Below are positions 51,956-62,010 of a stretch of 64,000 nucleotides of DNA, one piece after another. This DNA comes from Gammaproteobacteria bacterium (GTDB lineage Bacteria > Pseudomonadota > Gammaproteobacteria > JADZEE01): positions 70,341 to 134,340 of the forward strand of contig CBDDBH010000020.1 in assembly GCA_965225625.1 (NCBI GenBank). Reading direction: 5' to 3'. A program made the position numbers and the translations under genes. Under the pieces are notes generated by a model that saw nothing but the letters and a program-made list of their open reading frames with translations, was not told where the DNA came from and searched no databases. The stretch's first letter is position 1, and every line of letters begins with the position of its first letter.

Positions 51956-52137
51956 TTATATAACTATTCTCCGTTATCGATCTCAGTCCATCCGGTTCAA
52001 TAACTGGTTAATTATCCGATGGATTAAATCTATTTACATCCACTTGCATCAAGGGCGTGCGACGGGTATCTTGGCGTTGGGGTGACATAATGGTGACGCA
52101 GATGGACGGTGCCTCATCCCTCAACCAGGAGCACGCC

Positions 52138-53301
52138 ATGCTGACCGAACGCATCATCCGGGACGCCCAACCCGAGCCGAAAACCCGCATCCTGTGGGAC
52201 CAGGAGGTGAAGGGCCTGGGTGTCCGCATCACGCCGAAGGGTACGAAAGCCTATGTGCTCGACTACCGAATGCACGGCCGCCGCCATCGTGTGGTGCTGG
52301 CCCGAACGGCCGAGATCTCCTTGGAGGAAGTCCGCAAGCGCGCCGGTGCCGAGCGGGTGCGGATCCGCGCCGGCGAGGGCGATCTGCTGACGCGGCGGCG
52401 CGAGGCGCGTGCGTCACCCACGGTGACCGAGGGATTGGAGCGGTTCTTCGCCGAATATGTGCCGACGCGGCTGGCAGCGGGCCGCATGGCTCAGGGTACG
52501 GTCGATAGCTATCGCCAACAAGCTGCCCGATACCTGCGGCCTGCCCTTGGCCGGCGGCAGATCGCCGACATCACGCGCCACGACATCGAGCGCATGGTGG
52601 CGCCGCTCGCGACGGTCGCACCGGTGCAGCGTAACCGCGTGCTGGCGTTCACGAGCCGGCTGTTCCGGTTGTTCGAAGATTGGGAGCTGCGCCCGCAGCA
52701 CACGAACCCTACGCGGGGTATCGAGCGGGCGCGTGAGGAAGCGCGTGACCGGGTGCTCACGCCGTCGGAGATGACGGCACTCGGTGCGGCGCTGGCACGC
52801 GCGGAGAAGGACAAGCCCGCGGCCGTAGCGGCGATCCGGGTGGCGGCCCTGACGGGTCTGCGCATTGGCGAGGTGCTGGCGATGCGCTGGGAGCACTTAG
52901 ACACTGAGCACAAAGCCGTGGTGCTGCCCCACACGAAGACCGGGCGGCGCGTGCACGGCCTGCCCGCGGCGGCGCTCGAGCTGCTCGCGGGCCTGCCGCG
53001 CATCAACGGCTACGTGTTCACCACCGGACGCGACGCGGCCATTACGTATCAAACGGCCCACGCGGCCTTCGCAACCCTGGCGCGCGAAGCCGGCCTGTCG
53101 GACGTGCGCCTGCACGACCTGCGCCGCACGGTCATGACGAGCGCGGCGCGCGCGGGGGTCGGCACCCATGTACTACGCGACCTGCTCGGGCACAAGACCA
53201 CGGCGATGGCCGACCGCTACATCCGGCATGCCGGCGCGGCGGTTCACGAGGCCCAGGAGCACATCGGCGCGGCCATCGACGCGCAGCTGCGGGGCTTATG
53301 A
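52138..53301 (+). CDS. int: Tyrosine-type site-specific integrase (P4-like, with a DUF4102 arm-binding N-domain).
   Basis: ILWDQEVKGLGVRITPKGTKAYVLDYR (DUF4102-like) followed by the catalytic R...HDLRRT...Y region. Start taken at ATG 52138, which has an AGGAG RBS. Lies beside the att repeat. Confidence 0.85.
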   Translation: MLTERIIRDAQPEPKTRILWDQEVKGLGVRITPKGTKAYVLDYRMHGRRHRVVLARTAEISLEEVRKRAGAERVRIRAGEGDLLTRRREARASPTVTEGLERFFAEYVPTRLAAGRMAQGTVDSYRQQAARYLRPALGRRQIADITRHDIERMVAPLATVAPVQRNRVLAFTSRLFRLFEDWELRPQHTNPTRGIERAREEARDRVLTPSEMTALGAALARAEKDKPAAVAAIRVAALTGLRIGEVLAMRWEHLDTEHKAVVLPHTKTGRRVHGLPAAALELLAGLPRINGYVFTTGRDAAITYQTAHAAFATLAREAGLSDVRLHDLRRTVMTSAARAGVGTHVLRDLLGHKTTAMADRYIRHAGAAVHEAQEHIGAAIDAQLRGL

Positions 53302-53332
53302 TGGCGCCCGATACACGACGGAGGTTGGTTCG

Positions 53333-54133
53333 ATGAGCGGAACGGAGACCCCTCCTGAGCCGATCGAATGGTGCCCGCAGTGCGGTTCGCCGGTGATGAC
53401 GCCGGCGAACGTGCCCATGAGCGTGGACGCCGGTATGTGCCCAACGTGTGGGCAGAGCCCGATGGCGGCGGTTGTTCAGGACCTCTACGGCCCGGACACG
53501 AATCTGGGCGAACATCGAAGAAAGCTTATCGAGTACTTATCGGAGCTGACTAGGCTCCAGGAGCGCCGGAAAGAGGAGGATCTGCCCCCGTCCTATCAAG
53601 AGGCCGTGGACCTCGTGAAGCGGTATCCCTGGCCCGACCCTGAAGACCCCGAGGCTTGGGCCACCTTTGGGCTCATTTTACACTGTGTGATCTGGGTGGA
53701 TGGACAAGGGATGCTGATAGAAGAGCGCATCCGGGAGTTGCTTGAAGTCTGGCGAGACGAAAGCGAGCGGAAGTGGGATCGATTTTGGGTGCAGGAAGCG
53801 CTCGAAAAAATCGCAGCTCAGGCGCAGAAGGATCATCCACTCGCCGTTGAGATCTTCCAACGGCTGGCGAGCGGACGCCTCAACCGTCCGAGAGGTCGGT
53901 GCGATCCGCGGACAGATGAGGTTCGCAATACGAGTGTCGTCACGGTGATCGGGCATTTGCAGAGCCTGGGCATGAATCCGACGCGAAATGAAGTGAGCCC
54001 GGAACATTCCGCGTGCGATGCGGTCGCGGAAGCGACCGACTTGGAGTTGCCGACGGTCGAGACGATTTGGAAGCGGCGGACGGGCACGCAAGCAAACCGA
54101 CACAGGACCAGGGGGCAGTACGATGGGGCATGA
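53333..54133 (+). CDS. Hypothetical protein with an N-terminal zinc-ribbon (CPQCG...CPTCG).
   Basis: GGAGG RBS. Two CxxC pairs 25 aa apart. The C-terminal ~200 aa is acidic and helical with no known family. Overlaps the next gene by 11 bp. Confidence 0.45.
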   Translation: MSGTETPPEPIEWCPQCGSPVMTPANVPMSVDAGMCPTCGQSPMAAVVQDLYGPDTNLGEHRRKLIEYLSELTRLQERRKEEDLPPSYQEAVDLVKRYPWPDPEDPEAWATFGLILHCVIWVDGQGMLIEERIRELLEVWRDESERKWDRFWVQEALEKIAAQAQKDHPLAVEIFQRLASGRLNRPRGRCDPRTDEVRNTSVVTVIGHLQSLGMNPTRNEVSPEHSACDAVAEATDLELPTVETIWKRRTGTQANRHRTRGQYDGA

Positions 54134-59487: not shown

Positions 59488-59496
59488 CCGCGCCCA

Positions 59497-61513
59497 TGCA
59501 ACCAATGACCGTTCAAGACCGTTTGAGCCGTCGTGAGGCTGTGGAGACGCACACCGCACTTGAGAAGCTACGCGCGCGCGGCGCACATTTCGTCCTTGTC
59601 CGGCCCGACAAGCGCCCTCTCGCGAAGGGATGGCAGAAGACGGGACCCGACTTCTCGAACGTCGAGGGACACGCGGACGGCGGCGGCCTGGTCGGCGTCA
59701 TTCCGGCCAGCTTGGAATGTTTCGTGGTTGACATAGATGAAGGCGGCGAGAACGGCGTCGCAGCGGTGCGCGGCGTCCTGGGCGAGCCAGTCGGGGTAAT
59801 CGAAACCCAAAGGGCAGGCGGTTTTCATGCTTGGTACCGCGCGCCAGCTGGCAAAATCGGCAACCAAAAGTGGAAGTTGGACGGCGCAGCCGGCGATATT
59901 CGGGGATCGGCGGGTTACGCGATCTTGTGGGATCCAGCGAAACTCGCGAACGGGCTGGCGCGACACTTCGATGATGCGCAACCGGCTGACCCAGGCAGGT
60001 TGCCGAGGCCGGCTAAAAATGGCAAGCACGGGCCAGAAGCCTTACGAACCGCGCACATTGGCACGCGCAACGACACGCTCAATCGAGAGGCGTTCAAGGC
60101 TGCGAAGGACGGCGCGCTCGACTGGGACGCCTACCGCGACGCAGGCATTGAAGGTGGGTTGCCGCTCTGTGAAATCGATGCCACGCTCGAGAGCGCCGCG
60201 GGCGCGGCCGACGTGGCGAACGGAATCAAATCGGGAATACACAGGGTGGCTGCCAACCTCGCCGTTGCATTGAGAGGGCGCTATGCTTATAGCCCGGGGC
60301 GCGGCTGGTTCTGGCGACGGGACGCAGAGCTTTGGCAGCACGACGCCGAGAACCTTCGACTTCGCCGGCGTGTTTCGGACGACCTTCGAAATGCGCACGA
60401 GCAAAAAGCCATCGCTAGGGGTATCCGCACCCTTGAGGTGGTCAAGGAAATGGAACCGCTGCTTGCCGATCTCGGCGCGTGGGACGCTGACCCCGAACTT
60501 GTGGGCACGCCTGACCAACGTGTGCTTGACCTACGCAACGGGGTAATTCGCGCGGCCACGCCAGAGGATCGCATCTCCCGACGACTCGGATTTGTCCCGA
60601 ACACACGCCAGAAGGCGACGCGGTGGCTGCGCTTCCTCGACGAAACCGTTCCAGTTGATGACAAGACAGCGGGCATCGCCTTCTTGCAACGATGGTGCGG
60701 CTACACCCTGACGGGCTACAACCGTGAGCACAAATTCCTGTTCCTGCTCGGCAACGGCGGCAACGGCAAGGGTACGTTCCGCGATGTGCTCGCAATCGTT
60801 ATGGGGGAGTACTACCGGGGTTGCCGACCGATGCGATCTTCGGACGTTTTCCGCAACACCGGCAATGGATGGCGCGATTGGACGGTGCGCGATGCGCAGC
60901 CGTTTCCGAGCCGTCGCCCGGGGATCGATGGCGCGTCGGCGACCTAAAGGACCTTACCGGCGGCGGCCAAGTGACGGCGAATTTTATGCGCCAAGATTCC
61001 ATCGACTTCGAGCCGATCTGTAAGCTCATGGTGCTCGCGAACGATGCGCCGAAGTTGGACAGCGTTGATGAAGCCATTCGGCGGCGGCTGCTCCTGATGC
61101 CATTCACGCGCACGCCAGGGGCAGTTGATCCAAAGCTGCCCGAAGCGTTGCAGGCCGAGGGGCCGGCCATCCTCGCGTGGATGGTCGAGGGCGCGGCGGC
61201 CTACTTGCGCGACGGCTTGGGGCAGATACCCGATACGGCCCAAGCCGCCGCGAGCGAATACCTGGCGGGCGAAGACGAAATCGGACAGATGATCGAGGAC
61301 GCTTTTGAGCCCGGGGCGTATACGGTGACGAACAAGGACCTCATGGTGGCCGTGGAAGGGTGGTACGAGACAAACGGCGGGGGACGAAAGCCGCCATCGG
61401 TGCGGTTCGTAATCAAAGCATTAGTCAAGCGCGGTTTTCGACGCGAGCGAAGCAACGGCAGTCGCGGGATCGGCGGACTTAGGGTGCGCAGTGACGCAAG
61501 TGACGATAAATAA
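59497..61513 (+). pseudogene. Bifunctional Prim-Pol / P4-family D5-like primase-helicase, with an apparent 1-bp frameshift at a GGGG run (~60817).
   Basis: Prim-Pol N-domain (LVGVIPASLECFVVDIDEGG, GFHAWYRAP). P4-type Walker A FLFLLGNGGNGKGTF in ORF 59202-60947. The conserved continuation LPTDAIFG...LKDLTGGGQV...KLMVLANDAP reads only in ORF 60821-61513, which is a different frame. Confidence 0.65.
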
Positions 61514-61974
61514 CATTTTTCTGGTTAGGCTGTACGCGCGGGCGCGCGCGGATTAGGGTTAATATGGAATTGCCTTGTTTACGTCACTTCCGTCACGCAC
61601 GGTGGTACATAGGTCTGGCTGGAACGATTCCAACCGTTACTAAGGAACTGACGGAATGACGGAAGCCAAAGATAGTTCGGTGAGGGGCTTGATTTGCACC
61701 TTGGCGATGGATCCGTGGGGGGATGATATGAAGTGGGCCCTGAAACAGAACGCCAGCAACGCAAGACACCAAGAAGCAGCCTGTGTTAGCCATGGTGCAG
61801 CGGCGGTGAAGTCCGTACTGAGGCGATAGCCAATGTGTGGGCGCGGACACTGAAGCGAGAGATCCGCCAGAACGTGGATCGTCGCGCTCGCATGTGACGG
61901 ACGAATACTCCTCATACCGGGGCATTGGCGTTTGGGCCAATCTGTTTTTTCAGTTTTCTGTCGATCATCAGTTT

Positions 61975-62010
61975 AAGTGCGGGGGGCCGGATTCGAACCG
62001 GCACGGACTT
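61975..62010 (-). other. tRNA-like T-arm plus acceptor fragment (candidate island-end att remnant); not an intact tRNA.
   Basis: The minus-strand read gccggttcgaatccggc-cccccgc-a is a perfect T-arm and acceptor 3' strand. No matching 5' acceptor (gcggggg) or D-arm was found upstream. Confidence 0.3.

Follow-up and report, generated by a model that had tools for sequence, protein, structure and literature searches.

Organization of the island

We analysed a stretch of 64,000 nucleotides (nt) from a Gammaproteobacteria bacterium (GenBank assembly GCA_965225625.1, contig CBDDBH010000020.1, positions 70,341 to 134,340; this whole stretch is called the window) and found that it carries, from position 51956 onwards, a genuine mobile island of ~10 kb, belonging to a family that occurs in several copies in uncultured Gammaproteobacteria. 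Our main subject is the gene directly after the integrase gene (int) of this island, which we call X. The G+C content of 52000-61500 was 61-72% (about 65% for the block) against about 55% for the window and the flanks. An earlier note, made from the letters of this DNA, had described a tyrosine-integrase island of this size with a satellite-like module. The island is indeed a foreign one with such a module (HTH_17, primases, helicase), and every feature of the note's gene list is present in its place. As the note had also stated, capsid, conjugation and transposition genes were absent from the Pfam, NCBIfam and PHROG matches of the nine open reading frames (ORFs) of the island. The genes and the gap between them are as follows.

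52138-53301, plus strand: int, P4-type tyrosine integrase, 387 amino acids (aa), with Phage_integrase, Arm-DNA-bind_3 and phrog_1 matches
53333-54133, plus strand: X, 266 aa, unnamed family, contiguous with int, ORF with two CxxC pairs
54123-55109, plus strand: DUF932 / TIGR03299 'phage/plasmid-like protein' of 328 aa, with an 11-nt overlap with X
55110-55772, no strand: non-coding gap, 663 nt, 78% mean column identity among copies
55773-56018, plus strand: small MerR/excisionase-type helix-turn-helix (HTH) protein, AlpA-like by position, 81 aa, weak HTH_17 match
56022-56975, plus strand: DUF7146 + Toprim_3 primase-like protein, 317 aa (Pfam; phrog_510 DNA primase)
56972-58678, plus strand: putative ATPase, 568 aa, ATGA-joined to the Toprim gene, weak AAA_16 match
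58756-59487, plus strand: 243-aa protein with an N-terminal winged HTH (wHTH)-like part and two 59-aa repeats
59496-61513, plus strand: Prim-Pol + D5_N + DUF5906 primase-helicase of the P4 family, frame broken at about 60821

The int ORF spans 52057-53301 (stop codon at 53299-53301), and its likely start at 52138 gives a protein of 387 aa like those of its relatives; both the Phage_integrase (86.1 bits) and the Arm-DNA-bind_3 (39.5 bits) matches lay over their cutoffs. X follows after a gap of 31 nt, its start preceded by a GGAGG Shine-Dalgarno sequence 8 nt upstream, and the 11-bp overlap of X and DUF932 that had been reported was read directly in the sequence.

X and DUF932 are fixed parts of the element

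By looking up the close clusters of X (17 among 5.8 billion proteins) and scanning GTDB genomes, we recovered eight related loci (L001-L004 and L008-L011), four of them in one Gammaproteobacteria metagenome-assembled genome. A common backbone was identified, namely int - X - DUF932 - gap - HTH - Toprim - ATPase - wHTH - PrimPol helicase. X comes directly after int in all eight copies and DUF932 next in seven; the order is identical in L001-L003 and L008-L011, and in L004 int is followed by X. For most of its length, the window copy shares 94-100% identity with L002. The earlier note had named X and DUF932 the best candidate for an undescribed accessory or defence module, in an int-proximal slot known as a cargo hotspot. 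Because the eight copies carry the same backbone, the pair is not hotspot cargo. The int-proximal slot did prove unusually variable, as had been supposed, but the variation is allelic and mosaic within the X family, with no turnover of unrelated cargo. Searching the nine island proteins against PADLOC-DB 2.0 (E <= 0.01) returned zero families, which, together with the conservation and wide distribution of DUF932 described below, tells against the proposed defence module. These results indicate that X and DUF932 are fixed element parts, not anti-phage cargo.

DUF932 matched PF06067 with 164.8 bits (cutoff 23) and TIGR03299 over its full length with 209 bits (cutoff 110.7). Between the window and L001-L003 it was 92-99% identical at the aa level, with a ratio of nonsynonymous to synonymous substitution (dN/dS) of 0.15-0.19, which places it with the element's best conserved genes. 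Its homologues number more than 1600; at about 60% identity they occur in unrelated mobile genetic element (MGE) contexts without X, and at about 30% identity they were found in 515 phage records and 108 plasmid records, the phages including large Sinorhizobium and Methylophilales phages and many actinophages. DUF932 is thus a pan-MGE protein, present also in phages with no integrase noted. Since DUF932 occurs without X, and X is absent from the plasmid and phage sets, the two are not a couple beyond this lineage; a survey of their co-occurrence in other islands, which the earlier note had proposed as a check, found them uncoupled outside the narrow family.

We found no functional study of DUF932, YfjQ, YafZ or TIGR03299 in the literature searched. 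In one preprint, a mutation that removes the start codon of a DUF932 gene climbed to 50-60% following exposure to phage, the gene lying on an integrated plasmid with trbE also mutated (10.1101/2025.06.20.660599). As it was the loss of the start codon that was selected, intact DUF932 is suggested to raise phage sensitivity, not to lower it, and we read the result as DUF932 supporting the expression or activity of its element rather than defence. Most likely, DUF932 serves the establishment or life cycle of the element itself and not the defence of the host.

X belongs to a large unnamed family that nearly always follows P4-type integrases

X gave no match in Pfam, NCBIfam, PHROG or PADLOC. Its layout comprises an optional N-terminal four-Cys Zn-ribbon, a helical middle and a C-terminal domain of ~75 residues. 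The Zn-ribbon that had been noticed earlier is present in the window as two CxxC pairs, and among the copies it is variably present. An exhaustive profile search identified the C-terminal ~75 residues in 447 cluster representatives and, judged by sequence, they define an unannotated domain family. In the wider family this conserved domain is joined to unrelated N-terminal parts of 30-300 aa, and no Pfam family recurred in ten long X-like members and the 55 domain segments of our alignment A4 (E <= 1).

The domain begins with a basic RPxGRxxP segment (often RGRP), followed by a long helix, a TRN motif and two short helices that carry SACDAVA and a conserved Trp. The basic Arg/Pro/Gly segment resembles an AT-hook. 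The predicted structure of X reached a predicted local distance difference test score (pLDDT) of 68.5 overall and 80-91 over the C-terminal domain, where the modelled three-helix arrangement may be HTH-like. No fold match to the X structure was found, and a PDB profile search gave chance-level matches only; for DUF932 (pLDDT 81.9), neither the fold nor the sequence profile matched a PDB entry. The family and structure searches that had been suggested for the pair therefore left X with neither a family nor a fold match, and DUF932 with a known family and an unmatched fold.

We then considered more distant relatives. Searching a word-indexed database of 5.8 billion proteins with the A4 profile gave six short-contig proteins only, and a metagenome scan with a tighter subset of the segments (A5, also used to scan IMG/VR loci) gave 15 further X-like loci. 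At 10 of the 11 distant metagenomic loci with readable upstream sequence, the X-like gene lies directly downstream of a P4-type int, which was recognised by Pfam in three loci (L012, L019 and L025) and by a HGFRTSFRTW...AYARSDLFE.RR C-terminus in seven short contigs; the exception has IS21 upstream. The int and X-like genes overlap by ATGA in L004 and are separated by 3 nt in L025. In L012, L019 and L025 the gene after the X-like gene encodes an AlpA-type HTH protein, followed by Toprim, DUF3631 or RepA-like genes, and on these layouts int - X-like - alpA - replication genes is a conserved order. DUF932 and the long gap are an insertion specific to the family of the window. Relatives of X were found in none of 72,556 plasmids and 50,697 phages, nor in IMG/VR. 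In L012, a perfect 9-nt inverted repeat (TGGGACACC...GGTGTCCCA, 6226-6262) fills the spacer between the X-like gene and alpA, and it could be a terminator or an operator.

Among the close copies, X differs far more than its neighbours. Whereas the int protein was 93-95% identical to the integrases of L001-L003, with a dN/dS of about 0.2 (0.15-0.22 for int and DUF932 together), X was only 59-76% identical at the aa level to that of L001-L003, with a dN/dS of 0.37-0.54 and a dS that was also higher. At the nt level, X stands out as a divergence trough at 53291-54040, where identity fell to 42-85% compared with 90-100% in int and DUF932. In a sliding-window comparison, separate segments of X resembled separate copies, and the Zn-ribbon behaved as an indel, being present or absent. 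Given an identity of only 59-76% among copies, we regard X as a mosaic divergence hotspot.

Left junctions resemble a tRNA anticodon stem-loop

The features at the ends of the island are listed here.

51895-51955, minus strand: tRNA-Thr(CGU)-like 3′ half that runs from the anticodon stem-loop through CCA and a 12-nt trailer, at the left junction
51940-51956, no strand: core-like palindrome ACTGA-TTACGAA-TCAGT, which is the anticodon stem-loop and the start of homology of all copies
51956-52137, plus strand: AT-rich left arm upstream of int, 85-94% conserved among copies
61514-62141, no strand: right-hand non-coding tail, common to L002; homology to L003 stops at 61671

Homology to eight independent copies starts at 51941-51956, and the left flanks differ at each locus. 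The left border that had been drawn at 51956 is exact. The right border at 62010 is not supported, as homology to L002 reaches 62141. The consensus of the left junctions is (c)TGA-N7-TCAG followed by TTATATAAC, with an N7 that differs in each copy: in the window it is TTACGAA, the anticodon loop, and the other copies carry different heptamers. The junctions were placed around 8611-8625 in L001, L002, L003, L004, L009 and L010, and at 3808-3856 in L012. That of L002 sits inside the istA gene of IS21, as identified by tblastn, and others sit inside coding ORFs, one AsmA-like and one of the major facilitator superfamily; the distant relative L012 abuts the 3′ half of a tRNA-Lys(CUU), likewise. 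The left end of the window island abuts the displaced 3′ half of a tRNA-Thr gene, and other copies abut similar sequences in non-tRNA DNA. Taken together, the left junctions suggest that the P4-type integrase is relaxed in its choice of anticodon-loop-like sites, with three to four copies per genome.

The tRNA-Thr 3′ half forms a 61-nt direct repeat (51009-51069 and 51895-51955, 93% identical), and neither ARAGORN nor Rfam identified an intact tRNA gene in the 64-kb window. A right junction matching the left one was found at none of the loci, and the remainder of the interrupted istA was not found within the L002 locus. Likewise, no second GATT-N3-AATC core right of the island, no TGA-N7-TCA near the homology breaks and no tRNA-Thr 5′ half were identified, so that the search for the true right attachment (att) site, which the earlier note had left to be located, yielded neither a right att nor a direct repeat of the left core. 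Because no right junction was found, the target rule is one for left ends. Within the tail, at about 61977-62015 on the minus strand, lies a T-arm/acceptor fragment of a different tRNA. This fragment is common to L002, suggesting that an ancestor acquired flanking DNA from another tRNA site. At the other end, the left arm is a candidate arm-site and int-promoter region (TTGCAT-17-TATCTT), the promoter having been seen by eye only and not called by a consensus scan.

The surroundings of the island were also inspected. A HigB/HigA toxin-antitoxin pair (51240-51827, minus strand) is flanked by both 61-nt tRNA-Thr repeats and appears to be left over from a previous island at this tRNA locus. A third, degenerate fragment similar to a tRNA 3′ half (TGCCGGAGAG...TTCGAA...) lies at 45459-45500, about 5.5 kb leftward. 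The interval from there to the island encodes an amidohydrolase and an M64 peptidase that has TSP3 repeats, and its G+C is uneven (0.46-0.63). The stretch left of the island may hold older islands in a tandem array. At the right-hand edge of the window, the end of an insertion sequence (IS) transposase (rve_3; 63785-63979, minus strand) lies to the right of a broken DUF1329 gene.

A conserved iteron cluster precedes the replication genes

The gap between DUF932 and the HTH gene had been described as rich in GCGCAAT/ATTGCGC repeats. Window-wide, GCGCAAT occurs at chance (23 found, 21.5 expected), so the heptamer is not over-represented; the clustered, conserved units in the gap are nevertheless real. 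Four GGGCGCAAT/ATTGCGYCC units lie within 56 nt (55415-55470), and the cluster is kept in 8/8 related loci. In the window, ATTGCGCCC and ATTGCGTCC at 9-nt spacing are followed by two GGGGCGCAAT in the opposite orientation at 11-nt spacing. The cluster of each copy has the same build, with two or three ATTGCGYCC units (9-nt spacing) ahead of one or two GGGCGCAAT units that point the other way. This iteron- or operator-like cluster agrees with the earlier suggestion that the gap may hold an origin or operator sites. For a structured RNA in the gap, no Rfam match was found and the covariation term was unfavourable, which is weak evidence as only four distinct sequences were available. A conserved ORF in the gap was considered and rejected, given that the 167-aa minus-strand gene of L001 is not kept in the window and that no gap ORF is conserved among copies.

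The HTH gene downstream of the gap had been called alpA-like. An HTH gene is there, but its match to HTH_17 (PF12728) is weak (21.8 bits, E 2.3e-4, under the cutoff of 27), and Phage_AlpA (PF05930) was not matched; the homologue in L012 reached 28.3 bits for PF12728, over the cutoff. The Toprim protein is partly similar to TraI_TIGR, scoring 65 bits (cutoff 930) over a C-terminal segment of that model. Of the ATGA-coupled P-loop ATPase that had been proposed next, the ATGA junction stood; the 568-aa ORF gave only a weak AAA_16 match, and its Walker A motif is deviant. Over the N-terminal 90 aa it shares 40% identity with a DUF3631 protein of L012; the window ATPase itself has no DUF3631 match and is the positional equivalent of this DUF3631/RepAM-type protein. 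Relatives of the ATPase with 41-44% identity lie on two IMG/VR contigs, and PDB profile searches with the Toprim protein and the ATPase gave no match. The repeats of the wHTH protein come from a 177-nt tandem duplication (59126-59479, 80% identity), and their number is one in L001, L003 and L004 and two in L002. The wHTH gene is among the best conserved of the family, with 83-92% nt identity even in the divergent L004.

The primase-helicase matched Prim-Pol with 29 bits and TIGR01613 with 111.1 bits (cutoff 108.7), and the C-terminal fragment of the frameshifted gene matched DUF5906 (PF19263) with 27.1 bits (cutoff 27.6). Compared with the intact genes of L002 (672 aa) and L003, it lacks a single nucleotide in a G5 run near 60821. 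The neighbouring DUF1329 gene (62211-63538) is broken twice, one break lying beside an A-run at about 62626. As these frameshifts are linked to homopolymers, assembly error is no less likely than decay. Towards its right end the element is mosaic among copies, which differ in having D5_N/DUF5906 or VapE-type helicases and in carrying the 59-aa repeat once or twice. L001 and L003 extend rightward by at least a further 3 kb and share a segment there (17920-20717 in L001, 17075-20349 in L003), which holds a minus-strand pair of 60-aa and 62-aa genes and a second, short (308-aa) tyrosine recombinase, indicating that some family members exceed 12 kb.

A proposed role of X as a partner of the integrase

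The phage-inducible chromosomal minimalist islands, or PICMIs, of Vibrionaceae consist of six genes, int, iolg, alpA, up1, prim and up2, of which iolg overlaps int by ATGA, is without known function and is expressed constitutively with int (PMC10803314). Together with int and alpA, iolg is required for helper-induced PICMI excision; the trigger is alpA, which phage induces, the primase belongs to the DUF5906 type, and the gene that overlaps or is contiguous with int (iolg/icg) belongs to 13 unrelated families in the PICMI subfamilies (PMC10803314). X occupies the same place as iolg/icg, on the same strand, 3′ of int and upstream of alpA, and the likeness is one of position.

The gene order, the reading-frame coupling, the conservation pattern, the junction sequences and the iteron cluster were all observed directly. 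Our reading of them, to which we give a probability of roughly 55%, is that the element is a small self-replicating integrative island with the build of PICMIs and of the P4 and phage-inducible chromosomal island (PICI) satellites, in which X is a partner of Int in excision or its control, DUF932 is a backbone gene and the gap is an operator or origin. In this model, int, X and DUF932 would form a constitutive left-arm operon of the backbone, and X, from its position, its domain features and PICMI genetics, would be the counterpart of iolg/icg. With its basic RPxGR segment and HTH-like C-terminal domain, X would bind DNA as a partner of Int and, alongside the AlpA-like protein, help to build or control the excision complex. 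Specificity would come from the rapidly changing N-terminal half of X. The gap with its inverted iterons would act as the operator and/or origin ahead of a rightward operon (HTH, Toprim, ATPase, wHTH and PrimPol-D5) that may replicate the excised circle. The circle would then re-insert at anticodon-loop-like palindromes, which would explain the several copies per genome.

Several observations weigh against this model. No solved or predicted structure resembles X or DUF932, and the matches of the HTH gene and of DUF5906 lie just under the Pfam cutoffs. X diverges far faster than int (59-76% against 93-95% aa identity), unlike a tightly co-evolving recombination directionality factor. With no right att, no intact tRNA and a frameshifted primase, the window copy may be inert. 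The exact role of IOLG is itself unsettled, since in PICMI115 int alone complemented an int deletion (PMC10803314), and the authors of the preprint link the selection on DUF932 to defence (10.1101/2025.06.20.660599).

Four other explanations were weighed against the Int-partner model. The one that survives best, which we consider possible, is that the island is an integrated plasmid-like or integrative mobilisable element (IME) that is free of phage and spreads by conjugation hitch-hiking or intragenomic moves, its likeness to satellites being convergent. That the Toprim protein resembles part of conjugative TraI proteins fits this explanation, as do the RepAM/DUF3631 and Prim-Pol pairing typical of replication modules of actinomycete integrative and conjugative elements (AICEs), the absence of the element from IMG/VR, and a transposon-like spread with up to four copies per genome at non-tRNA sites. 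However, we recognised no relaxase, coupling protein, FtsK-like Tra protein or oriT, and the order int / int-adjacent gene / alpA-type gene / primase closely matches that of PICMIs.

We find it somewhat more doubtful that the window copy is a decaying, immobile remnant whose genes perhaps no longer work together, in which case it should not be taken to show a present-day function. A single-base frameshift in a G homopolymer and the homopolymer-linked breaks of DUF1329 are typical of long-read assembly errors, which blunts the evidence of the frameshifted primase-helicase and of the broken neighbouring gene with an IS fragment nearby. The lack of a right att repeat, of an intact tRNA-Thr and of a tRNA 5′ half in the window, and the foreign tRNA fragment in the tail, do accord with decay, but the other eight ORFs are intact, identity to L002 is 94-100% over most of the length, and a multi-copy family with several insertion sites implies recent activity.

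It is unlikely that X is a master repressor and sensor of a satellite, analogous to Stl of the Staphylococcus aureus pathogenicity islands (SaPIs), with the C-terminal domain on the iterons or the left arm, the N-terminal half reading a helper-phage protein and DUF932 an unrelated passenger. Such a role would suit the modular build of X, in which a conserved, DNA-binding-like C-terminus is combined with unrelated N-terminal parts, and its mosaic hypervariability between otherwise near-identical elements; the int/alpA-type/primase triad is satellite-like, and the conserved inverted iterons lie just upstream of the alpA-led operon. Yet the iterons are invariant while X varies, so the two do not co-vary, and the X-like gene and alpA are separated by few or no nucleotides in distant loci (94 nt in L012). 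The element has no known helper phage and lacks packaging genes, and PICMI genetics give the int-adjacent gene a role in excision, not repression (PMC10803314).

Least probable of all is the proposal that the pair is cargo of the slot next to int, with X and DUF932 acting as a hitherto undescribed module of anti-phage defence or anti-defence. In its favour, neither protein has a known function, X changes quickly and in a mosaic way, which is frequent among conflict genes, P4-like satellites carry defence hotspots, and DUF932 mutations were enriched after phage exposure (10.1101/2025.06.20.660599). Against it, the pair is constant in the family with no alternation with other cargo, DUF932 is near-identical among copies, is strongly constrained by purifying selection and is present in 515 phage records, X and DUF932 are not found together outside the family, PADLOC gave no match, and selected loss of the start codon suggests that the intact gene confers more sensitivity.

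Returning to the Int-partner model, a bolder extension, in our view improbable, is that X-like proteins are widespread integrase-coupled factors whose C-terminal domain docks on att or operator DNA and whose variable N-terminal halves sense, for example, a helper-phage protein, thereby deciding excision. If this were true, X would be the missing link from phage infection to the Int-AlpA excision complex of PICMI-like satellites.

The island itself is of an ordinary kind, with a P4-type integrase, an AlpA-type HTH gene and a primase. The useful result is its int-adjacent gene, which belongs to a large family unnamed in databases, is found nearly always after a P4-type int, and evolves faster than its neighbours. 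A false lead is also removed, as DUF932 and X should not count as a candidate defence pair on position alone. A second point of note is the apparent insertion at anticodon-loop-like palindromes outside tRNA genes, with multiple copies per genome.

Comparison with known systems

The islands CP4-57 and CP4-6 of E. coli combine a P4-type int, alpA and a UPF0380/DUF932 gene (YfjQ, YafZ) in one island. There, DUF932 is distant from int, among anti-restriction, RadC-like and CbtA/CbeA genes, and these islands are not known to have an X-like gene or a primase module.

With the P4-like satellites of Enterobacterales, the window island shares a P4-type int with Arm-DNA-bind_3, the TIGR01613 primase C-terminus, a small HTH gene that is AlpA-like by position and an association with a putative tRNA-derived att site. 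In contrast to them, its crossover lies at the anticodon loop and not at the T-loop, and its int-proximal genes are a fixed backbone and no defence hotspot. Among the Pfam and PHROG matches of the nine ORFs we found no psu, delta, sid, portal, protease, connector, HNH or terS/terL gene; because psu, delta and sid are absent, the island is not a P4-like satellite. It resembles the Gram-negative PICIs of the EcCICFT073 type in its co-oriented int, alpA-type and pri-rep genes, its size of ~10 kb and its lack of structural genes, and differs from them in that no packaging-redirection or terS-like gene was recognised and no att repeats were found in it (PMC6092414).

The AICEs (pMEA300/SLP1) likewise combine a tyrosine integrase with a Prim-Pol/RepAM (DUF3631)-style module, DUF3631 being their RepAM initiator (PMC3218068), and DUF3631 occurs in the relative L012. 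The island differs from AICEs in its proteobacterial host, in having no FtsK/SpoIIIE Tra protein and in that the window ATPase lacks DUF3631. Relaxase, coupling protein and type IV secretion system (T4SS) genes were not recognised among the island ORFs by Pfam or NCBIfam. As no relaxase, T4SS or FtsK-like Tra protein is present, the island is not an integrative and conjugative element, an IME or an AICE.

The closest likeness of architecture is to PICMIs, as both are small int islands with an int-adjacent gene and without capsid or packaging genes, the AlpA/MerR-type HTH gene and the DUF5906-type primase of PICMIs have probable equivalents here, and in both the int-adjacent gene is highly diverse between subfamilies. 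The SatelliteFinder model of PICMI comprises Int (PF00589), an AlpA or MerR-type HTH (PF12728), a DUF3987/DUF5906 primase and fis (PMC10803314). In the window, Int was found, the HTH and DUF5906 matches fell just under their cutoffs and the adjacency to fis is absent, so the island is PICMI-like in architecture and not a PICMI. The two also differ in other respects: the left flank here consists of a tRNA fragment and HigBA, no flanking direct repeat was found, and the island is about 10 kb long with five extras (DUF932, the Toprim primase, the ATPase, the wHTH repeat protein and the Prim-Pol fused to the helicase). Its family lives in high-GC uncultured hosts. The PICMI study left open how the int-adjacent gene works with Int and AlpA (PMC10803314). 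The X domain, with its DNA-binding features and its presence in hundreds of clusters, offers a handle on this question of excision as well as on the annotation of such islands.

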